Assembly (NCBI RefSeq): GCF_964194155.1
Contig: NC_135895.1
Location: 9,424,001-9,488,000, forward strand
Source: Cetorhinus maximus
Taxonomy: Eukaryota
Reading direction: 5' to 3'
DNA length: 64,000 bases
The notes beneath the pieces are model-generated. The model saw only the letters and a list, made by a program, of their open reading frames with translations, ran no database searches and had not been told where the DNA came from. The first letter of the stretch is position 1. The number at the start of each line of letters is the position of its first letter. The translations under genes and the position numbers were made by a program. Shown here one piece after another: positions 9,645-62,149 of the stretch.

Positions 9645-12322
9645 CTTAGCTGCACTCGTCCAGGCAAGTGGGGAGTATTCCATCACACTCTTGACTTGTG
9701 CCTTGTAGATGGTGGACAGGCTTTGGGGAGTCAGGAGGTTAGTTACTCGTCGCACTATTCCTAGCCTCTGACCTGTTCTTGTAGCCACAGTATTTATATG
9801 GCTAGTCCAGTTCAGTTTCAGGTCAATTGTAACCCCCAGGATGGTGATAGTGGGGGATTCAGTGATGGTAATGCCATTGAGCATCAAGAGCCAATGATTG
9901 GATTCTCTCTTGTTGGAGATGGCTGTTGTCTGACACTTGTATGGTGCGAATGTTACTTGCCACTTGTCAGCCCAAGCCTGGACATTGTCCAGGTCTTGCT
10001 GCATTTGGACATGGACTGCTTCAGTATTTAAGGAGTCTCGAATGGTGCTGAACATTGTGCAATTATCAGCAAACATCCCCACTTCAGACCTTTTGATGGA
10101 AGGAGGGTCATTGATGATGCAGCTGAAGATGGTTGGACTGAGGACACTACCCTGGGGAACTCCTACAGTGATGTCCTGGAGCTGAGATGTCTGACCTCCA
10201 AAGACCACAACCATCTTAATTTACGCTAGGTATGACTCCAACCAGTGGAACGCTTTCCCCCTGATTCCCATTGACTCCAGTTTTGCTGGGGCTCCTTGAT
10301 GCCACACTCGGTCAAATGCAGCCTTGATGACAAAAGCAGTCACTCTCACCTCACCCCAGGAGTTCAGCTCCGTGGCTGAACCAAGGCTGTAATGAGGTCA
10401 GGAGCTGAGTGACCCTGGCAGAACCCAAACTGAGCATCAGTGAGCAAGTTATTGCTAAGCAAGTGCCGCTTGATAGCACTGTTGATGACCCCTTCCCATA
10501 CTTTACTGATGATCGAGAGTAGACTGATGGGGCGGTAATTGGCCGGGTTCTATTTGTCCTCCTTTTTGTGACAGGACATACTTGGGCAACTTTCCACATT
10601 GCCAGGTAGATGCCAGTGTTGTAGTTGTACTGAAACAGCTTGGCTAGGGGCGTGGCAAGTTCTGGAGCACAAGTCTTTAGTACTATTGTGGAATATTGTC
10701 AGGGCCCATAGCCTTTGCAGTATCCAGTTCTTTCAGCCATTTCTTGATATCACATGGAGTGAATTGGTTTGGCTGAAGACTGGTATCTGTGATGCTGGGG
10801 ACATCCACAGGAGGGCGAGATGGATCATCCACTCGGCACTTCTGGTCTGAAGATGGTAGCAAATGCTTTTAGCCTTATCTTTTGCACTGATGTGCTGGGC
10901 TCCTCTATCATTGAGGATGGGGATATTTGTGGAGCCTCCTCCTCCAGTGAGTTGTTTAATTGCCCACCACCATTTACGACTGGATGTGACAGGACTGCAG
11001 AGCTTAGATCTGTTCCGGTGGTTGTGAGATCGCTTAGCTCTGTCTGTTCACTTGCTGCTTCTGCTGTTTGGCATGCAAGCAGTCCTGAGTTATAGCTTCA
11101 CCAGGTTGACACTTCATTTTTAAGTATGTCTGATGCTGCTCCTGGCATGCCTTCCTACAATTTTCATTGAACCAAGTTTGATTCCCTGGCTTGATGGTAA
11201 TGGTAGAGTGGGGGATATGCTGGGCCATGAGGTTACAGATTGTGGTTGAGTACAATTCTGCTGATGGCCCATAGCACATCATGGATGCCCAGTCTTGAGT
11301 TGCTAGATCTGTTTGAAATTTATCCCATTTAACATGGTGGTAATGCCTTGGAGGGTATCCTCAATGTGAAGGGGGGACTTTGTCTCCACAACAACTGTGC
11401 AGTGGTCACTCCTACCAATACTGTCATGGACATGCATCTGCGGCAGGCGGTTTGGTGTTCTTCCCTCTTGTTGGTTCCCTCGCCACCTGCTGCAGGACCA
11501 GTCTAGCAGCTATGTCATTCAAGACTCAGCCAGTAGTGGTGCGACTGAGCCACTCTTGGTGATGGACTCTGAAGTTCCCCCACCCAGAGTACATTCTGCA
11601 CCCTCGGTGCTTCCTCCAAGTGGTGTTCAACATGGAGATACACTGATTCATCAGCTGAGGGAGGGTAGTATGTGGTAATCAACCAGTTTCCTTGCCCATG
11701 TTTGGCCTGATGCCATGAGACTTCATGCAGTCCACAGTCAATGTTAAGGATTCCCAGAGCAACTTCCTCCTGACTGTATACCACTATACTGCCATCTCTG
11801 CTGGGACACAACACATCCAGGGAGATAGTGATGGTGGTGTCATTCCGTGAGGATGACTATGTCAGGCTGTTGTGAGACAGCTCTCCCAATTTTGGCACTA
11901 GCTCCCAGATGTTAGTAACGAGGACTTTGCAGGGTTGAGATTGCTGTTGTCGTTTCCAGTACCTAGGCCAATGCTGGGTGGCCCATTTGGTTTCATTCCT
12001 TTTTTGTGACTTTGTAGCAGTTTGATACAACTGAGTGGCTTGCTAGGCCATTTCAGAGAGTCAACCACATTGCTGTGGCTCCAGAGTCACATGTAGGCCA
12101 GACCAGGTAAGGTTGGCATATTTCCTTCCCTAAAGGGCATTAATGAACCAGATGGGTTTTTACAACAATGGTTTCATGGTCATCGTCAGACTTTGAATTC
12201 CAGATTTTTATTGAATTCACATTCCACCATACCCTGGCAGGATTCGAACCCACATCCCCAAAGCATTACCCTGGGTCCCTAGATAACTAGTCCAGCGACA
12301 ATACCACTAGGCCATCACCTCC
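9645..12322 (-). mobile_element. LINE-B, 5'-complete but 3'-truncated and decayed: tRNA-like head, AP endonuclease and RT (CR1-group non-LTR retrotransposon)
   Basis: Minus strand: head 12322-12029; APE motifs KVLVTNIWELVPKLGELSH, QPDIVILTE, LITTYYPPSADES; RT GVPQGSVLSPTIFSCIIND, MFADNCT, LGVTIDLKLNWTSHI, IYKAQVKSVMEYS (ORF 9630..10214). Confidence 0.9.
12240..12322 (-). promoter_or_regulatory. tRNA-derived internal Pol III promoter (A and B boxes) at the LINE-B 5' end
   Basis: Minus strand A box tggcctagtgg (12314-12304) and B box ggttcgaatcc (12250-12240); anticodon-like arm ctgga-ctagtta-tctag. Confidence 0.75.
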
Positions 12323-13139: not shown

Positions 13140-13480
13140 GAGATGGTGGAGTTGTGGTAATATCAGGGTAATCCAGAGGCCCAGGCTAATTCCCTGGGGG
13201 AACATGGGTTCAAATCCCACAATGGGAGCTGGTGCAATTTGAATTCAATGAATAAATCTGGACTATAAACCTAGTCCATGAAATTATTATCATTGCTGTA
13301 CTAATCACTAATGCCCTTTAAGGAAGGAAGGAAATCTGTCGTCCTTATCTGGTCTGGCCTCCATGTGACTCCAGACCCACAGCAATGTGGTTGACTCTTA
13401 GTTGAAATGGCCTAGCAAGCCTTTCAGTTCAAGGGAAATTAGGGATGAGCAACAAAGTGATGTCACAACACATGAAAGAG
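13140..13480 (+). mobile_element. SINE-B
   Basis: B box gggttcaaatccc; junction ggcctagcaagcctttcagtt|caagggaaattagggatg. Confidence 0.88.
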
Positions 13481-15499: not shown

Positions 15500-16777
15500 G
15501 GAGGGGAGGGAGTGGGGTGAGGTTGGGCCCATACTCATTGGAGTATCTTGTTGAAAAATTTAAGGTCTTGAGGAGGCTTGACAGGATAAATCCCTCTCAT
15601 GGTGGGATCCAGAACTAGGGGGCACAGTTTCAAATTTTGATAAAGTCCCACATACAATGTTAGTTTGCAAAATTAAAGCACATGGGAATGGGGCTCATGT
15701 ATTTGTATGGATTGAGAATTGCTTAACAGACAGGAAACAGAGAGTAGGAATAAATGGGTCTTTTTCAGAGTGGCAGATGGTGACTAGTGCAGTACTGCAG
15801 GGATCAGTGCTTGGGCCCCAGCTATTCACAATATATATCAATGATTTTATGAGGGAACCAAATGTAATATTTCCAAGTTTGCTGACAACGCAAAACTAGA
15901 TGGGAATGTGGATGGTGAGGAAGATGTTAAGAGGTTTCAAGGCGATTTAGACAAGTTGAGTGAGTGGTCAAATACATGGCAGATGCAGTATAACGTGGAT
16001 AAGTGTGAAGTTATCCACTTCAGTAGGAAAAACAGAATGGCAGAGTATTATTTAAATGGTGATAGATTGGGAAATGTTGATGTACAAAGGGACCTCGGTG
16101 TCCTTGTACACCAGTCACTGAAAGTAAGCTTGTGGTGCAGCAAGCAGTTAAGAAGTCAAATGGTATGTTGGCCTTCATTGCGAGAGGACTTGAGTACAAG
16201 GCTGTCTTACTGCAGCTGTACAGGGCCTTGGTGAGACCACATCTGGAGTATTGTGTACAGTTTTGGTCTCCTTACCTATATTTTTTCCATAGAGGGAGTG
16301 CAGCGAAGGTTTACCAGATTGATTCCTGGGATGGCAGGATTTTTGTCTGAGGAGAGATTGGATCGACTAGGCCTGTATTCACTGGTGTTTAGAAGAACGA
16401 GAGGAGACCTCACTCAAATGCATAAAATTCTGGCAGGCATGGACAGACTGGACGCAGGGATGATGTTTCCTTTGTCTGAGGGGTCTAGAACAAGAGGTCA
16501 CACTCTCAGGGTATGGGGTGGGCCATTTAGGACTGAGATGAGGAGAAACTTCTTCACTCAGAGGGTGGTGAACCTGTGGAATTCTCTACCACAGAAGGCT
16601 GTGCAGGCCAAGTCACTGAATGTATTTAAGAAGGAAATAGATTTCTGGACTCTCAACGTATCAAGGGGTGTGGAGAGAGAGAGCTGGAGTATGGCATTGA
16701 GATAGAGGGTCAGCCATGATCATATGGTGGAGCAGGCTCGAAGGGCTGAATGATCTGCTCCTGCTCCTATTTTCTAT
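15500..16777 (+). mobile_element. CR1-A RT to 3' end (short fragment 15500-15632 followed by a longer copy)
   Basis: RKQRVGINGSFSEW...QGSVLGPQLFTIYIND, FQGDLDKL, LYRALVRPHLEYCVQFWSP, RRNFFTQRVVNLWNSLP. Confidence 0.95.
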
Positions 16778-17450
16778 GGCCTGAATTTTCCCGTCGGCGA
16801 GTTGGGGGTGGGGCCCGCTCGCCAACGTGATAATGACATGGGATGACATTGGGAGGAACCCCCGACGTCATCCCGCCCCATTTAAATATTGAGGAAGGTG
16901 GGCGGACAGCGAAATCAGCTGTCCGCCCGTCGACCTGTCAATGGCCAATTGAGGCCATTGACAGGATGATTAAGGTAGTTAAAGGCCCTGCCCGTCCAAC
17001 CTTAAGGCTGGCGGGCAGGCCAGGAGCCCCAGCGGACTTCTGAAAAAACATAAAACCTCATCCACTGGCGGGATGAGGTTTCATGTCCGCTTTAAAAATG
17101 TTTAATAAATTTTATGTGATATTTATTAAAATGTCCCATCTCGTGTGACATTGTCATATGAGGAGGATATGTTAATAATTTTTTATTTTTTTCTATTTTT
17201 TAAGTTTGTAAAACTTTCACTGATCTCCCTGAGACAGCACTTAGTCTCAGGGAGATGTGCGCTTGCACGAAAGAGCGCACATTGACAGATGGGGAATCCC
17301 TCCCCTCCCACACAGGAAGCACATAGTGCTTCCCGTCGGCCAGGCCGCTGGGCGGGCCTTAATTGGCCCGCCCACTCAAAATGGCGGCGGGGTCCTCTTC
17401 GGCGGCGGAGTTCGGCTGCCCGCCCGCCAACCTAGGGCAAAATTCTGCCC
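16778..17450. mobile_element. Harbinger-like MITE inserted in a CR1 3' tail
   Basis: TIRs ggcctgaattttccc / gggcaaaattctgccc; removing it restores ctcctattttctatgtttctatg (cf. 47217-47243). Confidence 0.88.
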
Positions 17451-20374: not shown

Positions 20375-21135
20375 CAGTGTCATTCGCTGTTTGTAGGAGC
20401 TGGCTGCGTGCAAATTGATTGCCCTGTTTTCTACATCACAACAGTGTCTGTGCTTCAAGTTGGCCTGAAATTCCATAAGACATAGGAGCAGAAATTAGGC
20501 CATTCGGCCCATCGAGTCTGCTCCACCATTCAATCATGGCTGATAAGTTTCTCAACCCCATTCTCCCGCCTTCTCCCCATAACCTTTGATGCCCTTACCA
20601 ATCAAGAACCTATCTATCTCAGCCTTAAATACACTCAATGACCTGGCCTCCACAGCCTTCCGTGGCAATGAATTCCATAGATTCACCACTCTCTGGCTAA
20701 AGAAGTTTCTCCTCATCTCTGTTCTTAAAGGTCTTCCCTTTACTCTGAGGCTGTGCCCTCGGGTCCTAGTCTCTCCTACTAATGGAAACATCTTCCCCAC
20801 GTCCACTCTATTCAGGCCTTTCAGTATTCTGTAAGTTTCAATCAGATCCCCCCTCATCCTTCTAAACTCCATCGAGTATAGACCCAGAGTCCTCAAACGT
20901 TCCTCATATGCTAAGCCTTTCATTCCTGGGATCGTTCTCGTGAGCCTCCTCTGGACCCTCTCCAGGGCCCAGCACATCCTTCCTGAGATATGGGGCCCAA
21001 AATTGCTCACAATATTCTAAATGTGGTCCGACCAGAGCCTTATAAAGCCTCAGCAGCACATCCCTGCTTTTATATTCTAGTCCTTTGAAGCTCCTCGCTG
21101 CCTTTAGAGGCGCTACATAAACGCAAGTCTTTTTC
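20375..21135 (+). mobile_element. SacSINE1-like 3' half interrupted by a young CR1-A
   Basis: SINE homology 20375-20473 resumes at ~21085 (gaggcgctacataaacgcaagtc). Confidence 0.7.
20475..21084 (-). mobile_element. Young CR1-A 3' fragment
   Basis: ORFs 20552..21010 and 20904..21140 give a nearly intact ORF2 C-terminus; tail nearly identical to 24570-24717. Confidence 0.95.
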
Positions 21136-22370: not shown

Positions 22371-22439
22371 TGGAGGTGGGTGTAAGTGTGTATATGAGAA
22401 TGGGAGTGGGAGAGAGCAACAGTGCATTTTTAAAATTAT

Positions 22440-23232
22440 TATTTCACAGGATGTGGGCATCGCTGGCTAGGCCAGCATTATTGTTCATCTCTGGTTGCCC
22501 TTGAGAAGGTGGTGGTGAGCTGCCTCCTTGAACCACTGCAGTCCATGTGGTGTAGGTACACCCACAGTGCTGTTAGGGAGGAAGTTCCAGGATTTTTGAC
22601 TCAGTGACAGTGAAGGAACAGCAGTATATTTCCAAGTCAGGATGGTGAGTGGCTTGGAGGGGAACTTGCAGGTGGTGGTGTTCCCATGCATCTGCTGCCC
22701 CTGTCCATCGAGATGGCAGTGGTCACAGGTTTGGAAGGTGCTGTCGAAGGAGCCTAGATGAATTGCTGATGTGCATCTTGTAGATGGTGCACACTGCTGC
22801 CACTGTGCATCTATGCTGGAGGGAGTGAATATTGAAGGAGGTGGATGGGGTGCCAATCAAACAGGCTGCTTTGTCCTGGTTGTTGTTGAGCTTCTTGGGT
22901 GTTGTTGGAGCTGCACTCATCCAGGCAAATGGAAAGTATTCCATCACACTCCTGACTTGTCCGTTGTAGATGGTGGACAGGCTTTGGGGAGTCAGGCGGT
23001 GAGATACTCTCCATAGAATTCCCAGCCTCTTACCTGCTCTTGTGGCCACAGTATTCGTATGGCTGGTCCAGTTTAGTTTCTGGTCAATGGTAACCCCTCC
23101 CCCATCATGTTAGTTGTGGGGGATTCAGTGATGGTAACATCATTGAATGTCAAGTGGAGATTGTTGGATTCTCTCTTGTTGGAGATGGTCATTGCCTGAC
23201 ACTTGTGTGGCGCAAATGTTACTTGCCACTTG
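22440..23232 (-). mobile_element. LINE-B 3' fragment
   Basis: KWQVTFAPHKCQAMTISNKRES, ATRAGKRLGILWRV, QDKAACLIG, complete 3' tail. Confidence 0.92.
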
Positions 23233-26394: not shown

Positions 26395-27325
26395 TTACAT
26401 TGTATTTACTGCACAGAAGAATGTTGACCCTCCTGATTTATGGTTTATGCTCCACATGAACCTCCTCCCATCCTTCATCATATAATTCCGTCAACATACT
26501 ACTTCCATTCTTTCCTCTAACACGTCTTTATCTAGCTTTGCCCTTAAATGATCCTTTGCTATTCACTACTCCATGTGGTAACATTTGCTTTTCATTCATT
26601 CAACGTGAGCATCACTGGCTAGGCCAACATTTTTTTTGCCCATCCTTAATTGCCATGGTGGGAATTGAATTCAGATCCCCAGAGCATTAACACTGGATCT
26701 CTGGATTACCAGTGCAGTGACGATACCACTACAGCACTGTGCTCCACATTTTCAAAGCTCTCTGTGTAAGACGTTTCTCTTGAATTCCATTTTGGATTTA
26801 TTAGTGACTGGATCTCCCCAACAAGTGGAAACACCTTCACTATGTCTACCTGACAACTGTTTCATAATCTTAAAGACATCTATCAGGTCACCCTTCAGTC
26901 TTCTTTTTTTTCAGGGAAAAGAGCCCTGGCCTGTCCAATTTTTTCCTGGTAAGTATAACCTCTTGGTGTCATTCTTGTATAACTTTTTTGCACCTTCTCC
27001 AGTGTCACTATATCCGTTTTATAATATGGAAACTGAAACTGTTCACAGCGCTCTCAAGGTGGTCTAATCAAGGTTATATTCAAGTTTAGCATAAACTTCT
27101 CTGTCTTTCGATTCTATTCCTCTAGAACGGAACCCCAGTGAAGATGTTTCCACTTGTGGGGGAGATCAAAACTAGGGGCCATAAATGTAAGAAAGTCACT
27201 AATCAATCGAAAAGGGAATTCAAGAGAAACTTCTTACCCAGGGAGTGATGAGAACATGGAACACATTACCACATGGAGTAGTTGAGGTGAATACCATAGA
27301 TATATGTAAGGGGGAAGCTAGATAA
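26395..27325. mobile_element. Old minus-strand CR1 fragment containing a partial minus-strand SINE-B (~26585-26732), followed by a plus-strand CR1 piece (~27140-27325)
   Basis: ttcataatcttaaagacatctatcaggtcaccc (CR1 reverse complement); ggtgggaattgaattcagatccccagagcatta (SINE-B head reverse complement). Confidence 0.7.
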
Positions 27326-27870: not shown

Positions 27871-29534
27871 CCCAAGCTCCTCGGTCATTCAAAAATGGCG
27901 CAAGGCTTGCACTCATAGGCTCATAGATGTTTACTGCACAGAAGGAGGCCATTCGGCCAATCATGTCCATTCCCACCACCCTCTGGGTGAAAAAAAATTC
28001 TCCTCAACTCCCCTCTTAGCCTTCTACCTCTTACCTTAAATCTACGCCTCCTGGTTATTGACCCCTCTACTAATGGAAAAAGTGTCCTCCTATCCACCCT
28101 ATCTATGCCCCTCATAATCTTATACACTTCTATCAGGTCTTCTCTCAACCTTCGCTGCTCCAAGGAAAACAACCCCAGTTTATCCAATCTTTCCTCATAG
28201 CTCAGACCCTCCAGCCCAGGCAGCATCCTGGTAAATCTCCTCTGCTTCCTCTCCAGTGCAATCACATCTTTCCTATAATGTGGTGACCAGAACTGCACAC
28301 AGTGCTCCAGTTGTGGCCTAACCAGCATTTTATACAGTTCCAGCATAACCTCTCTGCTCTTGAATTCTAAGCCTCGGCTAATAAAGGTAAGTATCCCAAA
28401 TGCCTTCTTAACCACCTTATCAACCTGCCCTGCTACCTTCAGGGATCTATTGGATATGCACACCAAGGTCTCTCTGATCTTTAGTACTTTCCAGGGTCCT
28501 ACCATTCATAGTGTAATCCCTTGCCTTGTTAGCCCTCCACAAGTGTATTACCTCACACTTTTCCAGGTTGAATTCCATTTGCCAGTACTCTGCCCACCTG
28601 ACCAATCCATTGATATCCTCCTGGAGCTTACGGCTATCCTCCTCACTATTTACCACCCTACCAATTTTTGTGTCATCCGCGAACTTCTTGATCACACCCC
28701 GTACGTTTAAGTCCAAATCATTTATGTACACCACAAACAGCAAGGGCCCCAGCACTGAGCCCTGTGGAACCCCACTGGAAACAGACTTTCAGTCACAGAA
28801 ACATCCCTCTACCATCACCCTCTGCTTCCTGCCTCTCAGCCAATTTTGGATCCGTCGTGCTGCTTTGCCTTGGATCCCATGGGCTCTTACTTTCTTGACC
28901 AGTCTGCCATGAGGGACCTTATCTAAAGCCTTGTTAAAGTCAATGTAGATCACATCAAATGCATTACCTTCATCCACACTCCTAGTTACCTCCTCAAAAA
29001 ATTCGATCAAATTTGTCAAACACGACCTTCCCTTAACAAATCCATGCTGACTGTCCCTGATTTATCCTTGTCTCTCCAAGTGCAGATATATTCTGTCCCT
29101 CAGAATTCTTTCTATTAACTTCCCTACCACCGAGGTTAGACTGCCTGGCCTGTAATTTCCTGGTCTATCCCTTCCTCCCTTTTTTAATAATGGGACAACG
29201 TTAGCAGTCCTCCAGTCCTCTGGCACCTCACCTGTGGCCAGAGAGGAGTAGAATATTACCACCAGGGCCCATGATATTTCTTCCCTTGCCTCCCTCAACA
29301 GCTTGAGATACATCTCATCTGGGCCTGCAGATTTATCCACTTCTAAGGCTGCTAAACCCATTAGTACCTCTTCTCTCTCTATGTTAATTTCCTCTAACAT
29401 TTCACAGTCCTCCACCCTGATGTCTATACCTTCATCATCCTTTTCCATTGTGAAGACCGACGCAAAGTATTCATTGAGGACTGCACCCATGTCTTCCGGG
29501 TCGACACACTCTGACCTAATTGGCCCTACTCTTT

Positions 29535-40815: not shown

Positions 40816-40910
40816 GGGTGGAGTTTTATGAGCCCTCCCGCCGGGGGAATTTTCCAGTCCCCCCAGAGTCAATGGACTTATGAACAGCTCACTGCATTTT
40901 CCAGCCCCAT
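40816..40910. mobile_element. Short MITE, truncated
   Basis: gggtggagtttt...ccctcccgccggggg..ttttccagtccc...gtcaatggact; homologous to 47261-47390. Confidence 0.65.
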
Positions 40911-41325
40911 CCCTCAACGCCATCCAGGACAAAGCAGCCTGCTTGATTGGCATCCCATCCACCACCTTAAACATTCAATGCCTCCACCACCGATGCAGGG
41001 CAGCAACTCACCAAGGCTCCTTCGACAGCAACTTCCAAACCTGCCACCTCTACCACCCTGAAGGACAAGGGCAGCAGATGCATGGGAACGCCACCACCTG
41101 CAAGTTCCCCTCCAAGCCGCTCACTCTCCTGACTTGGAAATACATTGCGGTTCCTTCCTGGGTCAAAATCCTGGAACTTCCTCCCTGACAGCGCTATGGG
41201 TGTAACCACACCAGATGGACTGCAGTGGTTCAAGAAGGCAGCTCACCGCCACCTTCTCAAGGGCAATTAGGGATGGGCAATAAATGCTGGCGTTGTCAGC
41301 GGCACTCATATCCATGAGCCAATTA
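40910..41325 (+). mobile_element. LINE-B 3' end
   Basis: LNAIQDKAACLIGIPSTTLNI and complete tail. Confidence 0.9.
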
Positions 41326-41659
41326 AAAAAAAGGGTACCAAAATGCTGAAGTGGAAAATCCTAACCAGAGCACTGGCAGAATGTCCGAGCATATGCAGGT
41401 GGTGGGGAGGCGGAGGGGGGGTGTCAGGTGGAACACTAGAAACAGTCCATGTCCAAGTGATCTGCGCTGGATTTTATGCACTACACGAGCCTTCTCCTAC
41501 CTCACCTCGTCTCGTCTCATTCGCTGAACACATCCTCTTCTTCCTTGCTTGCTCATGAACTCAAAAGGTTGCCTCTGGTGTCATGTCATGTGACAGGAAA
41601 TCAAGATTACACTACAGATGCCCCGACACACACTAAGCATTTGCCCTTAGTCCTGTTCG

Positions 41660-44166: not shown

Positions 44167-45185
44167 AGGCTGGATTTTACAGGTTCAAGCGGGATATGGG
44201 AGGCGGAATGGGAAGTGAGTGGTCCGCTCACTCCCTCCCCACCATCAGTAAAAGGGAGGCAGTGACGGTGGTATTGTCACTGGACTAGTATTCCAGAGAC
44301 CCAGGGTAATGCTCTGGGCACCTGGGTTTGAACACCACCATAGCAGCTGGTGAAATTTGAATTCAATAAAAATATGGAATTAAAAGTCTGATGATGATGA
44401 CCATGAAACCATTGTCGTAAAAACCCACCTGGTTCACTAATATCCTTTAGGGAAGGAAATCTCCTGTTCTGGCCTACATGTGACTCCAGGCCCACAGCAA
44501 TGGGGTTGACTCATAAATGCCCTCTGAGCAAAGGCAATTATGGATGGGCAATAAATGCTGGCCAAGCCAGCGAAGCTGAATTTAAAAAAGCATGGCAAGC
44601 CAAGTGTTGGGCACACAATTAGCAGCTTCCTAGTTTTACATTGGGAAGTGGGGGGTGGGGGACTTCATGCCCAACCGGGTGTCTAGGCTGGGACATCTGG
44701 CGGGAGAGAAGTGGAAGTCAGTCACGGCCACCAATTTAAAGGCCCCGATCTCTCACTCTCTCCTTATTTGTTATGGCAGCCTAAAAACTGTAAAGAAATA
44801 AAGCTGAATTACATCCAAACACTGCCATCTTCGCCAGCAGAAGCTACTGCTCCCTGCCACCACGGTCCCATTGGCAGGCCTTTCCTTCTGCCCTTGCCTC
44901 ATACCTGGCATAAATGACTCCCCAACTCCTCCCCGTCCGAGGCCCAATAAATGCAGTGGGCAAAGAAAAATTGCCAACAGTTGGCTCTTTAAGAAGCTCA
45001 ATAGCTTGTTAATTGGCTGTGCCAAAATGACAGGTGGGCCACCAATTTCGGCATCCGCTCACCTTCCGTATTATCGGAGCCTGGTGGCATGGCGTCAGAT
45101 TGCCAACCGGACATCATCACGCCATATTTTACAGAAGCGCCCGGGGTGGTGGCATGCCTGATGTACGTCCGTAAAATCCAGTCCC
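44167..45185. mobile_element. Harbinger-like MITE carrying a SINE-B insertion
   Basis: TIRs aggctggattttac / gtaaaatccagtccc. Confidence 0.72.
44262..44590 (+). mobile_element. SINE-B (short-junction variant)
   Basis: Head gtggtattgtcactggactagtattccag...gggtttgaacacc; junction gccctctgag|caaaggcaattatggatggg. Confidence 0.88.
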
Positions 45186-45369: not shown

Positions 45370-45700
45370 CTTTGACAGGATAGGGAAGGCCAATATTTGG
45401 TCGCCCATCCCTGATTGCCCTTGAGAAGGTGGTGGTGAGCTGCCTTCTTGAATCACTGCAGTCCATGTGGTGTAGGTACACCCACAATGCTGTTAGGAAG
45501 GATGTTCCAGGATTTTGACCCAACGACAGTGAAGGAACAGTGATATAGTTCCAAGCCAGGAATGTGAGTGACTTGGAGGGGAACTTGCAGGTGGTGGTGT
45601 TCCCATGCATCTGCTGCCCTTGTCCTTCTAGGTGGTAGAGGTCGTGGGTTAGGAAGGTGTTGTTGAAGGAGACTTGGTGAGTTGCTGCAATGCGTCTTGT
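45370..45700 (-). mobile_element. LINE-B 3' end
   Basis: Highly similar to 22490-22780. Confidence 0.88.
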
Positions 45701-45945
45701 AGAGTCGTGAGTCTTTGGAACTCTCTTCCTCAAAAGGTGGTGGAAGCAGAGCCTTTGAATATTTTTAAAGCAGAGGTAGATAGATTCTTGTTAAGCAAGG
45801 GAGTGGAAGGTTATCGGGGCCAGGCAGGAATGTGGAGTTGAGGTTGCAGTTAGACCAGCCATGTTCTTACTGAATGGCGTAGCAGGCTCGAGTGGCTGAA
45901 GGCCTACTCCTGCACCTAATTCGTACAGTCATATGTTCATATGAT
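45700..45945 (+). mobile_element. CR1-A 3' end
   Basis: tttggaactctcttcctcaaaagg...ggcctactcctgc. Confidence 0.85.
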
Positions 45946-48730: not shown

Positions 48731-48739
48731 TATGTATGC

Positions 48740-49320
48740 AGGTCAGATGCTGGGAATTCTGCTACGAGTAACTCACCTCCTGACTCCCCAATGCCTGTCC
48801 ACCACCTACAAGGCACAAGTCAGGAGTGGGATAGAGTACTTTCCACTTGGCTAGATGATTGAAGCTCCAACAACACTTAAGAAGCTTGACATCATCCAGG
48901 ACAAAGCAGTCCACTTGATTGTCACCCATCCACCATCTTCAATATTCACTTCCTCCACCACCAACGCACAGTGGCAGCAGTGTTTACCACCTACAAACTG
49001 CATTGCAGCAACTCATCAAAGCTCCTACGACAGCACTTTTCAAACCTGTGACCTCTACCACCTCAAAGGGCAGTGCAGCAGATGCATGGAAACACCACCA
49101 CCTGCAAATTCCCCTCCAAATCACACACCATCCTGACTTGGAACTATATCGCCGTTCTCTCACTGTCGCTGGATCAAAACCCTTGAACTCCCTCTCTAAC
49201 AACACTACAACACATGGACTGCAGCAGTTCAAGAAGGCAGCTCGCCATCACCTTCTCAAGGGCAATTATGGATGAGCAATAAACACTGGCCTGGTCCGAT
49301 GCCCATATGCAGTGAAAGAA
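48740..49320 (+). mobile_element. LINE-B 3' fragment
   Basis: APTTLKKLDIIQDKAVHLI and tail caagggcaattatggatgagcaataaa. Confidence 0.9.
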
Positions 49321-50059
49321 TATAAAAGTTGCCTATTCTAAGCAATAACAACATGAAATTCTAACAATATTTCATTTCCCAAGAAAAATTGAAATTGGAA
49401 ATAGTCCTTGCCCACCTGGGGTGTCTAGGTTCTCTGGCTGAAGGCACATTATTACTAGCAACTGCTTCTGATTCAGCAGGTTTTCTCTCCAGAACATCAT
49501 TGCAGGGATTCAGGTTAACAACCCAATGAAGTGCTGAGAAATGCTGTCCAACATTCCATCCTTTGATTGAGACATTTACATTAGCCTGAACAGGGTTTAA
49601 AGATCTCATTATCACTGTGCACAGAAGTACGTAGTGTCCTGACCAATAGTCTCCTTCAACCACCACCACCAAAGACAGATCACCTAGCTTATTGTCTCGT
49701 TGCTGCTTGAGGCATTTTCCTGTGTGTAAAATGGCCACTGTATTTACCAATTTAATAAGAGTTACTAGATTTCAAATTAACTTATTGCAATAAAATCCTT
49801 TGAGATGTTTCAGAGACAAATTGCTACATGAGTAAAAGCCCTTCTTAGGTATACATAGATGAAAAACATACATTCTTATATGAGTAAGAAGATCGGAGGA
49901 TTGTTTTCAACATGGCGAATTAATTCAGAAGTAAAATACATCCTGCCTGATGTATTTGTTATGTACAAGCTCGCATTAGCACCCGATGAGCACGATTTCA
50001 TTTCCACTTGTGACTGTGTGCACAAGCCAGGGAAGCATATGGTCTTTAAGTCAACAAAA

Positions 50060-55599: not shown

Positions 55600-56685
55600 A
55601 CCTCGGGAGGTTTCTGATCATCACAGATGCCAGTCTTCAGCCTATTCAATTCACTCCATGTGATATCAAGAAATGGCTGAAGGCACTGGATATTGCAAGG
55701 CTATGGGCCCTGACAATATTCCGGCAATAGTACTGGAGATGTGCTCCAGAACTTGCTGCGCCTTTGGCCAAGCTGTCCCAGTACGGTTAGAACACTATGG
55801 GGAAGGTGGTGGCGTAGTGGTATTGTCACTGAACTAGTATCCCAGGGACCCAGGATAATGCTCTGGGAATGCTGGTTCAAATCCCACCATGGCAGATGGG
55901 GTGAAATTAGAATCAATTAAAACCTGGAATTAAAAGTCTGATGGTGACCATTGCTGACTGCCATAAAAAGCTATCTGGTCCACTAGTGTCCTTACCTGGT
56001 CTGGTCTGACTGTGACTCCAGACCCACAGCAATGTGGTTGACCCTTAAATGCTCAAATGCTCTCTGAACAAGGACAATTAAGGATGGACAATAAATGCTA
56101 GCCTAACCAGTGATGCCTACATCCCATGAATGCATAGGAAAAAATCTACCTGGCAATGTGAAAAGTTGTCCTGTACACAAAAAGCAGGGCAAATCCAACC
56201 CTGGCCAATTACTGTCCCATCAGTCTACTCTCAATCATCAGTAAGGGGTCATCAACAATGCAATCAAGTGTCATTTGCTTAGCAGAATTCTGCTCACTGA
56301 TGCTCAGTTTGGGTTCTGCCAAGGTCACTCACCTTCTGACCTCACTCATTATATCCTTGATTCAAAGATGGACAAAAGGGCTGAAGTCCAAAGGCGAGAG
56401 TGACTGCCCTTGACATCAAACCAGTACCATCTTGAAGGACAAGGGTAGCAGATAGATGGGAACACCACCACCTGGAAGTTCCTCTCCAAGGCATTCACCA
56501 TCCTGACTTGGAAATATATCACTGTCACTGGGTCAAAATCCTGGAACTCCCTCCCTAATGGCACTGTGGGTGTACCTACACCACATGGCCTACAGTGGTT
56601 CAAGAAGATGGCTCACCACCAAGGACTATGAGCGACGGGCAATAAATGCTGGCCTAGCCACTGATGCCTACATCCCATGAGCTAA
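55600..56685 (+). mobile_element. LINE-B RT and 3' fragments interrupted by a SINE-B (55798-56135)
   Basis: aaggctatgggccctgacaatattccggcaatagtactg (KA.GPDNIPA.VL); resumes at atctacctggcaatgtg; 3' end at 56420-56685. Confidence 0.85.
55798..56135 (+). mobile_element. SINE-B (short-junction variant)
   Basis: A box tggcgtagtgg, B box ggttcaaatcc; junction ctctctgaa|caaggacaattaaggatgg. Confidence 0.88.
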
Positions 56686-58044
56686 TAATAAATATTAAAA
56701 CACAACAGGTTGCTATGTTGGTTTAGCTGCTTTACTGAAAACAAAGAACTCTGTCCTACTTTCAATAGACTATGGAACTCCTCCCCTCAGTCAATCTATC
56801 CTTCCAACAATCTCTTGGATTTAAAAACCCTGGGTTTGATCTCACTGAATAACAATTTACTGATCTACATTATCTGTTCTGCCTGGGCTACGTCCAGTTT
56901 AACATTTAACCTGAAAGATGGCACCTCTGACAGTGCAGCATTCCATCAGTGCTAGTATTGGTGCATCAGCTGAGATATACTCTCTGGAGTTGGGCTTAAA
57001 CACAAAATCATCTGATTCAAGGCAAAAGTGCTAGGAACTGAACCACGTTTGACACTAATTAAGATATTAAAGTCGAAAAAGATATAAAACCATATTGGCA
57101 CAGCATGAGCAACATCCATGGAGTTCCCTATAAGTGGGACAGGAAGGACAAAAGAGTCCAGGCTGAAATCTAGACGGTTAGTTGCTGTGATTGGTTTCCG
57201 TGGAAGGATGAACTAGATGGGCCAAATGGCCTCTTCTCTCTCTTTCTTAGTGATCCTTGCAAAGCCTATAAATCATTTAAAACATTGGCGGGCTACTACA
57301 AAGGGACTCAACAAAAGTCGATGTCAACACAGCTGTTGTGAGTTTAACCAGGATGGGTAAATTGGGGGGGGGGTGCGCTCAAGCACAGAATTGCACAGGT
57401 CATGGCAATGGCAAAATAAGGAAATGTTGCTTTCCACATCACTGGAGTCTCTCAGCTGGCTGAATGCAGCCCCTCACTCCTAACATCGACATGCCAGGCA
57501 CAGCCACAATAAAGCACAGCAAACTGGATAGGAAATCGTTGCAGCATTTCTAACATCATATTTTCAGCGTTTACTTCCCCGCTGGCCGCAGCCTCCCCAT
57601 CCTGTCCCACATAGCGAGTGCCGACTAATATGAGGAATTATGACTGAAATACTGATCAAGGTTGAAACGTTCTCCTGGTTTTATTGCTTCTCTTTTTTAG
57701 TTCCATCCTGGTCAAACAGCATAGACCAAACGCCAATAATTCAAATTCCAGATCCTCATATCCAAAATCACCACATGCGCTGTCAGAAGACAGTTTGTAT
57801 ATATTATGTTGCAAAATCCTGCTCAGTTAATCCCATATTCAACTTGTCATACATGAATGTGCCCTTCCATCATTCCTTTGAATGAAGCCCACTGGGGTGA
57901 TGAATAATAATCACTGCTGTTGGGAGATTATAGGCCTATTTTCATTCACTGTATTCACCTGTTTAAAGTCATGTCCGCCAGGAATTGATGAGACAACGTT
58001 GTAAAATTCACCTGGGATTACAGGACCAGGATTTCATTTTTTTT

Positions 58045-58855
58045 TTAATCCATACACGGGATGTGGGCTTCCCTGACTGGGCCAGCATTTATTGCCCATT
58101 CCTAGTTGCCCTTGAGAAGATGGTGGTGAGCCGCCTTCTTGAACCGCTGCAGTCCATGTTGTGTAGGTACACCCACAATGCTGTTAGGGAGGGAGTTCAA
58201 GGATTTTGACCCAGCAACAGTGAAGAATGGTGAGCGTTTTGGAGGGGAACTTCCAGGTGGTGGTGTTCCCATCTATCTGCTGCCCTTTTCCTTCTAGATG
58301 GTAGTGGTTGTGGGTTTGGAAGGTGATGTCTAAGGAGCCTTGGTGAATTCCTGCAGTGCATCTTGTAGATGGTACACACTGCTGTTCCTGAGCGTCGGTG
58401 GCGGAGGGAGTGAATATTTGTGGATGTGGTGCCAATCAAGAGGGCTGCTTTGTCCTGAACAGTGTCAAGCTTCTTGGAGTGTTGTGGGAGCTGCACTATC
58501 CAGGCAAGTGGGGAGTATTCTATCACACTCCTGACTTGTGCCTTGTAGACAGTGGATAGGCTTCGGGGAGTCAAGAGGTGAGTTACTCGCTGCAGGATTC
58601 CTAGCCTCTGACCTGCTCTTGTAGCCACAGTATTTATTTGGCTAGCCCAGTTCAATTTCTGGTCAATGGTAACCCCCAGGATGTTGATAGTGGGGGATTC
58701 AGTCATGGTAATGCCATTGAATGTCAAGGGGGCGATGGTTAGATTCTCTCTTGTCGGAGATTGTCATTGCCTGGCTGTTGTGCGGCACGAATGTTACTTG
58801 CCACTTCTCAGCCCAAGCCTGGATATTGTCCAGGTCTTGCTGCATTTGGACATGG
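58045..58855 (-). mobile_element. LINE-B 3' fragment
   Basis: ORF 58197..58727 TFNGITMTESPTINILGVTIDQKLNW...RAGQRLGILQRV...YKAQVRSVIEYS. Confidence 0.93.
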
Positions 58856-59084
58856 AAGATATGAAAGACTGAGCCACTGTCAGGGAGCACATAGGACGCT
58901 GTCACTCCTCAGCTCCCCAAGTTCATACAACATGGCTTTGAAATGAGAAACTGTTCTGTGAAAGAGTGGCCACTCTGCTCCTCGTGGGCAGGGCAATAGT
59001 CCCCCACGCTGCCAACAGTCAGAAGCAGGCACATCCCGCAAATGCAGACTGCCAACCTCAATCAGGCTTTGTCATGATATGGGA

Positions 59085-60260: not shown

Positions 60261-60607
60261 TACGATTCATAGATCCACACATGCCCAAAGTTATGTGGCT
60301 TTTCAAGTAGGTCAGCACCTTCCAGTCAAAATACTGTTGGGAAAACATATTAAGGAACAGAAGAGGGAGAGTTGAGAGTATAAGTTCTGAGAATATCTTT
60401 GCTGATAAACCACAGTATAAAATAACTTCAAATCTGAAGACAATATTAAATGAGAGAAGATGGATGTGCGTATGTTAGCACAAGGGAGGGTCTAAAAAGA
60501 GTTCAAATTTAACAAGGTTCAGTTGGCTACTGACTATGATACTGGACTAGCAATCCAGGGGTCACAAGTTCACATTCCACCATATCAAGTTTTATAAAAT
60601 TCAATTT

Positions 60608-62037
60608 CAGGATGTGGGCATCGCTGGCTGGGCCAGCATTTATTGCCCATCCCTAATTGCCCTTCAGAAGGTGATGATGAGCTGCCTTCTTGAACTGCTG
60701 CAGTCCCTGTGGAGTAGGTACACCCTCAGTGCTGTTAGGGAGGGAGTTCCAGGATTTTGACCCTGTGACAGTGAAGGAGTGGCAATATATTTTCAAGTCA
60801 GGATGGTGAGTGGCTTGGAGAGGAACTTGGAGGGTGGTGGTGTTCCCATGTGCCTGCTGCCCTTGCCCCTCTAGGTGGTAGCAGTCGTGGGTTTGGAAGG
60901 TGCTGTCTAAGGAGCCTTGGTGAGTTTCTGCAGTGCATCTTGTAGATGGTACTCACTGCTGCTACTGGGCGTCGGTGGTGGAGGGAGTGAATGTTCATGG
61001 AAGGGGTGTCAATCAAGCGGGGCTGCTTTGTCCTGGATGGTGTCAAGCTTCTTGAGTGTTGTGGGAGCTGCACTCATCCAGGCAAGTGGAGAGGATTCCA
61101 TCACACTCCTGACCTGTGCCTTGTAGATGGTGCTGGCTCTTTGAAAGAGATAGTCTTGTCCCCCTTGCCCTTTCCACATAGCCCTGCAAATGTTTCCTCT
61201 TCGAACATTTATCCAACTCCCTTTTCAAAGTTGTGACCGAATCAGCTTTCTCCACCCTTCAGGCAGAGCGTTCCAGCCTCCCCTGTCAAAGCTATTCATA
61301 ATTTTGAACACCACTATTAAATCTCCCATTAACGTTCTCTGCCCAAGGAGAACAAACCCAGCTTCTCAAGTCTCTCCATATAATTGGGGGGAGTCAGGAG
61401 GTGAGTTACTCGTCGCACAATTCCCAGCCTCTGACCTGCTCTTGTAGCCACAGTTAGTCCAGTTCAGTTTCTGGTCAATGGTAACCCCCAAGTTGTTGAT
61501 AGTGGGGGTTTCAGTGATGGTAATGCTGTTGAACGTCAAGGGATGATGGTTAGATCCTCTCTTGTTCGAGATGGTCATTGCCTGGCACTTGTGTGACATG
61601 AATGTTACTTGCCACTTGTCAGCCCAAGCCTGGATATTGTCCAGGTCTTGCTGCATTTGGATATGGACTGCTTCAGTATCTGAGGAGTCACGAATGGTGC
61701 TGAACATTGTGCAATCATCAGCGAACATCCCCACTTCTGACCTTCTGATGGAAGGAAGGTCATTGATGAAGCAACAGCTGAAGATGGTTGGGCGTAGGAC
61801 ATTACCCTGAGGAACTCCTGCAGTGATGCCCTGGAACTGAGATGATTGACCTCCAACAGCCACAACCATCTTCCTTTGTGCTAGGTATGATTCCAACCAG
61901 TGGAGAATTTTCTCCCTGATTCCCATTGACTTCAGTTTTGTTAGGGCTCCTTGATGACACACTCGGTCAAATGCGGCCTTGATGTCAGGGGCAGTCACTC
62001 TCACCTCACCTCGGGACTTCAGCTCTTTTGTCCATGT
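60608..62037 (-). mobile_element. LINE-B RT to 3' end, interrupted by a CR1 piece at ~61132-61383
   Basis: ORF 61366..62085 DIKAAFDRVCH...GVPQGNVLRPTIFSCCFINDLP..MFADDCT; complete tail. Confidence 0.93.
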
Positions 62038-62149
62038 TGCAAAACTGAATTCAGTAAAAATGGTAATTCCTGGACTGTGCCCCAAAAAATTACCATGGAA
62101 GTTACTGGATTCTTATTAAAAATCCAGCTGATTGACCTCAACACAGTCT

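Follow-up and report, generated by a model that had tools for sequence, protein, structure and literature searches.

What kind of element occupies the minus strand at positions 9645–12322 of the window (the whole 64,000-nt stretch of Cetorhinus maximus DNA analysed here), and why is its sense strand almost free of runs of four or more T? The sequence-only reading had proposed selection for full-length read-through of a protein-coding retroelement by Pol III (RNA polymerase III). Our answer, which the features of the locus and its family make probable, is an autonomous non-LTR retrotransposon, here as a decayed copy, with a tRNA-type SINE head and a T-run-poor sense strand. Pol III likely transcribes it over its whole length, and its RNA likely serves as both message and template.

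The family element is a non-LTR retrotransposon of ~3.25 kb (~3270 family positions; full-length copies 3.1–3.3 kb). A tRNA-like head is followed by a SINE-type body of ~200 nt, a single endonuclease-RT (EN-RT) ORF and a tail. The window copy has an intact 5' end, lacks ~470 nt of the 3' end and aligns to family positions 1–2804 of ~3270. Its long ORF (9648–12024, minus strand) encodes a basic leader, an APE-type endonuclease and a reverse transcriptase (RT) and is disrupted by private stops and frameshifts; the family majority has 969 codons from stop to stop. RVT_1 was detected on the window frames and on locus L081, and Exo_endo_phos_2 together with RVT_1 on locus L062. Dispersed copies, a fixed 3' end, variable 5' truncation, an A-rich tail, the lack of LTRs and an ORF with APE endonuclease and RT identify the family as a LINE. 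The 5' tRNA-like head with A and B boxes and the lack of an internal Pol III terminator (no T4 in the majority sequence of 21 copies) are characters of SINE2 elements. These are short and non-coding, which applies to the free short derivatives of the family and not to the LINE with its 3.1–3.3 kb and 969 codons. A first look for the family RT yielded 413,420 candidates in the 3.99-Gb genome.

The tRNA-like head (12230–12322, minus strand) has a Thr-type loop and a long extra arm according to relaxed ARAGORN. The sequence-only reading lacked any mention of a head with A and B boxes. Pol III read-through predicts a 5' Pol III promoter, and a pair of boxes is indeed present in the mobile head: a putative type-2 A box at 12314–12304 and a putative B box at 12250–12240, both on the minus strand. 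The A box was assigned by sequence, by comparison with the box consensus, and by its position and variants across 21 copies. The B box is exact in 6 of the 21, and six more differ only by CpG decay. Relaxed ARAGORN called a tRNA in 14 of 20 full-length heads, nine of them as Thr(AGT), compared with 23 out of 200 pieces of ORF and 12 out of 200 heads after shuffling as controls. Default ARAGORN and Rfam did not detect the head, which is visible only at the relaxed threshold with controls. Full-length copies start at the tRNA head with near-consensus boxes. The SINE-type body (12030–12229, minus strand), common to the free SINEs, contains several short upstream AUG frames and presumably resembles the Deu domain. 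Directly behind the head, 113 nt into the element, is a conserved AATAAA (window 12207–12212, minus strand).

The association of head and ORF was examined in two sets of copies. A query selected to span the head-ORF junction had 16,127 candidates, of which the best 40 were scored, and the head is joined to the ORF in all 39 other copies of these top-scoring 40. The second set was taken from a search with the RT protein, which listed 150 copies, and comprised 20 of them. Full-length copies of 3.1–3.3 kb (n=20) came from both, 17 of the 39 junction-picked and 3 of the 20 RT-picked copies. Five RT-picked copies reach the first 16 nt, two end in the body and 13 are cut at scattered points between 316 and 1776, one of these at the edge of the fetched stretch. 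No other common 5' end was found among the 20 RT-picked copies, 15 of which are shorter. Three flank matches considered as an alternative 5' end are other repeats and lack an anchor at one or both junctions. Four of the 20 full-length copies have flanks that rejoin one interrupted repeat within 1–6 nt; head, ORF and tail therefore insert together. One of the 20 has a clear 12-bp target-site duplication; four others have gaps of 1–6 nt instead. The fixed junction, the rejoining flanks and the headless truncated copies rule out a separate SINE inserted beside a LINE, as well as a LINE that targets SINEs. The single mobile unit consists of the head, the SINE body, one EN-RT ORF and the tail. The body-ORF junction is also bridged by contigs in runs from four coded organisms. 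Two near-identical loci ~1 Mb apart on contig C1 (L201 and L202) represent a segmental duplication and not independent insertions.

Other pieces of the family in the window are 5'-truncated or rearranged. The copy at 58038–58856 (minus strand) has a complete 3' end with AATAAA, a short hairpin and an A tail. A 3' end is also present at 22436–23232 (minus strand) and, together with the RT region and in two pieces, at 60599–62038 (minus strand). Plus-strand 5'-truncated copies are located at 48738–49327 and, more diverged, at 40917–41332. A 3' fragment lies at 45388–45703 (minus strand), and rearranged LINE fragments at 55601–56692 (plus strand).

Free SINEs have the first 280–300 nt and the last ~80 nt in common with the LINE, with several junctions. 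The SINE at 744–1146 joins the LINE head and body to the last ~80 nt, the one at 44255–44576 has both LINE ends, and the one at 13168–13470 (end approximate) is another junction variant; all three are on the plus strand. The fourth, at 55804–56144, has the orientation of the rearranged partner-LINE copy in which it is nested. A mini-element at 26583–26732 (minus strand) joins the tRNA-like head almost directly to the LINE tail and has no body. The free SINEs are either deletion products of the LINE, or the LINE was born when an ORF joined such a SINE. Should the assumed Deu likeness of the body hold, capture of a SINE head by the LINE is favoured, because SacSINE1-like elements are described as old and common to shark and coelacanth (PMC5499810).

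The scarcity of T-runs is a property of the whole family. The sense strand of the 9645–12322 copy has a single T4 (10332–10335, minus strand) and 11 A4, in line with the earlier statement that antisense T-runs are common. This T4 had been regarded as a probable post-insertion mutation. The homologous site near 61987 reads AGGGG and none of the 20 other full-length copies has TTTT there, which identifies it as a private change. Sense T4 runs are absent from 22440–23232, 58045–58855, 61385–62037 and 40910–41325, and one is present within 48740–49320, at 49037, as had been seen by eye. The window's 24 family pieces together span 9,403 nt and contain 3 sense T4 and 44 A4. The column majority of 21 copies has no T4 and 6 T3 in 3,280 columns.

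The sequence-only reading had suggested to count T4 in the consensus against shuffles. The consensus is indeed free of T4, but the count by itself is not significant against codon shuffles: the 969-codon majority ORF has 0 against 2.0 expected in synonymous-codon permutations that fix protein and codon counts (P=0.087). Base shuffling of the ORF gave 3.5 expected (P=0.027), a dinucleotide shuffle of the whole element 1.6 (P=0.19). With about two expected, the T4 count was dropped as the main statistic. Shorter and imperfect runs are more informative. The majority ORF has 4 T3 against 12.5 expected, and none of 5000 codon permutations was as low; the dinucleotide shuffle of the whole element gave 6 against 11.2 (P=0.03). 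Windows with four T out of five occur once (10.8 expected), as do degenerate T-tracts (6.7 expected). Runs of A, C and G are at expected levels, and isolated TT is not depleted (70 against 69). Nor was there depletion of pyrimidine tracts, of sites resembling splice acceptors or of poly(A) signals. Avoidance of UU dinucleotides, splice acceptors or poly(A) signals as the cause is thus unsupported. TA is mildly depleted (99 against 117).

The LINE differs from CR1 elements of the same genome. T4 runs occur at 0.21 per kb in the LINE (21 copies) and at 3.86 per kb in CR1 (19 copies, 3' part only), T3 runs at 3.4 and 12.2 per kb, at a similar T content (0.214 and 0.229). The observed/expected ratio of T3 is 0.32 for the LINE and near 1 for CR1. 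Sense T4 runs of the window's CR1-A were confirmed at 2070, 2157 and 2463. CR1 fragments are abundant in the window, and several distinct CR1 families (67–80% alike) with ordinary T-run content are present at 1626–2608, 15823–16779, 20473–21079 and 27921–29532. The CR1 control argues against the A-richness of LINE sense strands, raised earlier as a caveat, as an explanation. The other caveat, that copies are not independent, was right: one family is one evolutionary sample. T4 gain after insertion is approximately neutral (0.67 against 1.0 simulated), so the purge of T-runs belongs to the master lineage and a post-insertion mutation bias is ruled out as the cause.

Base composition, codon use and a Phe-poor protein could by themselves produce a lack of T-runs without selection on runs, an explanation we regard as very improbable. 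The ORF has 20% T, 18 Phe in 969 residues and no TTA, which fits the low T4 expectation of about 2. An amphioxus-containing sister group (P0164, P0016, P0018, P0025 and P0026) is equally Phe-poor (1.5–1.8%) and may share the T purge. GC-balanced relatives also have few T4, with 1 in 953 codons (L226), 0 in 401 (L152) and 0 in 372 (L094). L226 and L152 are not T3-depleted, and the composition-matched L226 has 15 T3 against 18 expected. With protein and codon counts fixed, the depletion of T3 and of four-of-five windows in the shark ORF persists, and runs of the other bases are unaffected. Among 118 related ORFs, mostly AT-richer and from few hosts, the minimum observed/expected ratio of T3 was 0.74 for 61 metagenome ORFs and 0.81 for 57 others. 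These ORFs came from 80 metagenome loci and 72 loci on host contigs in symbiont bins; 19 and 14 loci, respectively, were left out for lack of a 400-codon ORF. L291 was dropped, as its longest ORF was a non-relative, and L127 was retained among the 61 despite having no protein match. For T3, the composition explanation is largely refuted. One related ORF with 37% T (L165:446-3664) has 16 T4 against 24 expected and no detected A+B pair.

The depletion is T-specific, starts at run length three and includes degenerate T-tracts. Human Pol III is reported to stop at T4 and at degenerate elements resembling T≥5 (PMC3141230). The missing class of sequences is that at which human Pol III stops, which fits terminator avoidance. 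The selection proposed by the sequence-only reading thus gained support, and from it we infer Pol III transcription. The tRNA-headed architecture and the purge of T-runs are observed features of the family.

In the preferred reading, TFIIIC would bind the A and B boxes, and the first G residues would be the site of Pol III initiation. Any lineage that acquired a terminator would have been unable to make full-length RNA and would have died out, leaving a sense strand purged of T-tracts. Pol III would pass through the A tail and stop at a T-run in or beyond it. The LINE protein would bind the 3' hairpin and the A tail, and a new copy would be inserted by target-primed reverse transcription. The free SINEs, whose two ends match those of the LINE, likely rely on the LINE enzyme. 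T-runs also occur at the 3' end of many copies. Before the A tail, 11,481 exact matches in the genome have a single T and 5,269 have at least four. Among the first 100 matches listed with at least two T, a hand count gave 31 T2, 9 T3, 12 T4, 32 T5 and 16 longer runs, with T5 as the mode. Tails of old B2 SINE copies are reported to gain T after insertion (PMC8466645). The tail T-run was therefore set aside as ambiguous as an inherited terminator and does not provide independent support for Pol III.

Alternatively, the head may be a captured passenger on a Pol II transcript that starts in the SINE body or results from host read-through, the T-runs having been lost for another reason, for example to escape RNA decay, pausing of Pol II or immune detection of U-rich RNA. 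Published accounts have autonomous non-LTR elements transcribed by Pol II (PMC10886601, PMC5786205) and ascribe weak processivity to Pol III, SINEs measuring 100–700 bp (PMC10886601), which counts against a Pol III transcript of this length. A capped RNA would ease translation, the LINE has two AATAAA signals at its 3' end, and TA is depleted as well as T-runs. RNA data consist of contigs from 24 runs, their kind guessed, and show the presence of the family and not start, strand, cap or polymerase. Their coverage has a 3' bias and declines towards the 5' end, the pattern expected if truncated copies were passively transcribed. One run, the coral metatranscriptome X13, contains a fraction of 0.32 of the element's words and is likely contaminated. 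CR1 elements in the same genome and host have not lost T-runs, and the undepleted TT, pyrimidine tracts and acceptor-like sites do not point to a general avoidance of U-rich RNA. Full-length copies begin at the tRNA head with its near-consensus boxes, and the AATAAA behind it would be unfavourable for a Pol II message. On balance, we consider a Pol II origin unlikely.

Translation poses a problem for the Pol III reading. The ORF itself was under purifying selection in head-bearing lineages. Variants common to at least four copies comprise 23 synonymous, 12 non-synonymous and one stop, whereas singletons comprise 258 synonymous, 724 non-synonymous and 33 stops. The predominance of synonymous changes among shared variants shows that the protein was selected in head-bearing masters. 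Within the majority ORF, residue 284 is the first AUG; most copies lack an earlier one that would open the ORF, and seven AUGs are located in the body upstream, which makes it genuinely hard to see how an uncapped RNA would be translated. An AUG in strong context is in frame with the long ORF (12049–12051, minus strand), but two codons behind it most copies have a stop, this one among them; of 1,918 matches, 94 among the first 100 listed carry the stop. Another conserved AUG, at 11996, lies out of frame. The uncapped RNA would be translated by a non-standard route, which may be read-through or re-initiation past the two-codon frame at 12051 or an entry that needs no AUG. Translation of L1 ORF2 is AUG-independent. 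According to the title of a 1995 study by Gunnery and Mathews, Pol III RNA can reportedly be translated. Pieces of the LINE ORF are also found in two shark gene models (P0061, anoctamin-7-like; P0064, storkhead-box-like), either by exonisation or by annotation error.

Pol III might also make template RNA only, with protein supplied in trans from Pol II read-through or from a few open-AUG copies, so that most full-length copies would be giant SINEs. Poor translation is expected of an uncapped RNA that has many AUGs upstream, and the prevalent stop behind the in-frame AUG adds to this; 115 exact matches read open at this AUG against 1,918 for the wider pattern. These open copies are no closer to the majority than others (69–91%) and do not look like younger drivers. 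The mostly synonymous shared variants and the open majority ORF of 969 codons are best explained by masters that each used their own protein. We rate this division of labour as slightly less likely again than a Pol II transcript. The preferred reading in its full form is a natural 3.3-kb protein-coding, self-mobilising Pol III retrotransposon. It would have taken over a SINE promoter, avoided terminators, had its uncapped RNA translated without a standard start, reached hundreds of thousands of copies across sharks and formed SINEs by internal deletion. To this extended scenario we give a little better than an even chance.

If true, a selected 969-codon ORF behind a tRNA promoter breaks the division of polymerases between LINEs and SINEs and provides a natural Pol III message. 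The standard division assigns LINEs to Pol II and reserves Pol III for short non-coding SINEs (PMC10886601, PMC5786205), and the relevant parts of four publications keep this division or leave it unchallenged (PMC10886601, PMC5786205, PMC4758252, PMC5381603). An autonomous tRNA-headed LINE was not found in the open literature searched; subscription papers, Repbase or Dfam may already hold a consensus. Three questions could be addressed in one construct: the reach of Pol III without terminators, the translation of uncapped RNA in vertebrates and the origin of SINEs by deletion from a tRNA-headed LINE. The family makes up a large part of the ~4-Gb genome and bears on the expansion of shark genomes.

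Gene models of Heptranchias and Heterodontus match parts of the LINE protein with an identity of 71–75%. The nearest proteins are from invertebrates: amphioxus (41%), brittle star and crab. In a FastTree phylogeny of 110 RT regions with midpoint root, the LINE groups with invertebrate EN-RT proteins, separate from shark CR1 (local support 0.96), and hence outside the CR1 clade proper. CR1-Zenon is a candidate clade for the LINE. Atlas matches were generic RVT_1 clusters only, a cluster look-up yielded no names, and viral contigs contained no relatives of the element. The A+B box pair was absent from 58 related ORFs, of which 36 had 300 nt or more upstream, and from 25 metagenome loci, with a detector that recognises only 11 of the 20 true heads. 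The bacterial symbiont bins of clam, mussel and snail hosts contain dozens of LINE contigs from animals (L220–L290), a sign of host contamination.

The CR1-Zenon label has been used for whale shark repeats (10.1101/443036) and for the partners of bivalve SINEs (PMC11481361). Elements of this kind resemble the shark LINE in the APE endonuclease and RT, the motifs of the CR1/L2 group and a length of ~3.3 kb, at which the ORFs of Zenon-1/2_Hm end (PMC4016481). In contrast, the relatives with available DNA have no upstream A+B pair and normal T-runs. The Deu-SINE SacSINE1 of sharks and LmeSINE1 of the coelacanth have, by their description, a tRNA-like head with A/B boxes and a body of ~200 nt (PMC5499810). 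SacSINE1 is non-coding, ~460 bp long and has an L2-type tail (PMC5499810), whereas in the LINE of this genome a 969-codon ORF lies behind the head, and its free SINEs bear the tail of their own LINE. SINEs on bipartite RTE and Vingi LINEs likewise combine a small-RNA head with LINE-derived parts and have both ends in common with a LINE (PMC5786205). Their head sits on a non-autonomous, deleted LINE, and the parent LINE is described as a Pol II transcript (PMC5786205); here, a coding and selected LINE bears the head. Cassandra, Helenus and Ajax (TRIMp3) are retrotransposons with a Pol III promoter from a small RNA (PMC10886601). Unlike the shark LINE, they are non-autonomous LTR elements of 0.3–1.3 kb, and their autonomous partners are argued to need Pol II (PMC10886601). 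B2, Dip and Ves, all of them T+ SINEs, share AATAAA, T-run and A tail with the 3' end of many copies of the family (PMC8466645). They are short, non-coding and mammalian (PMC8466645), whereas the commonest end in the shark family has a single T and its T-runs may be post-insertion.
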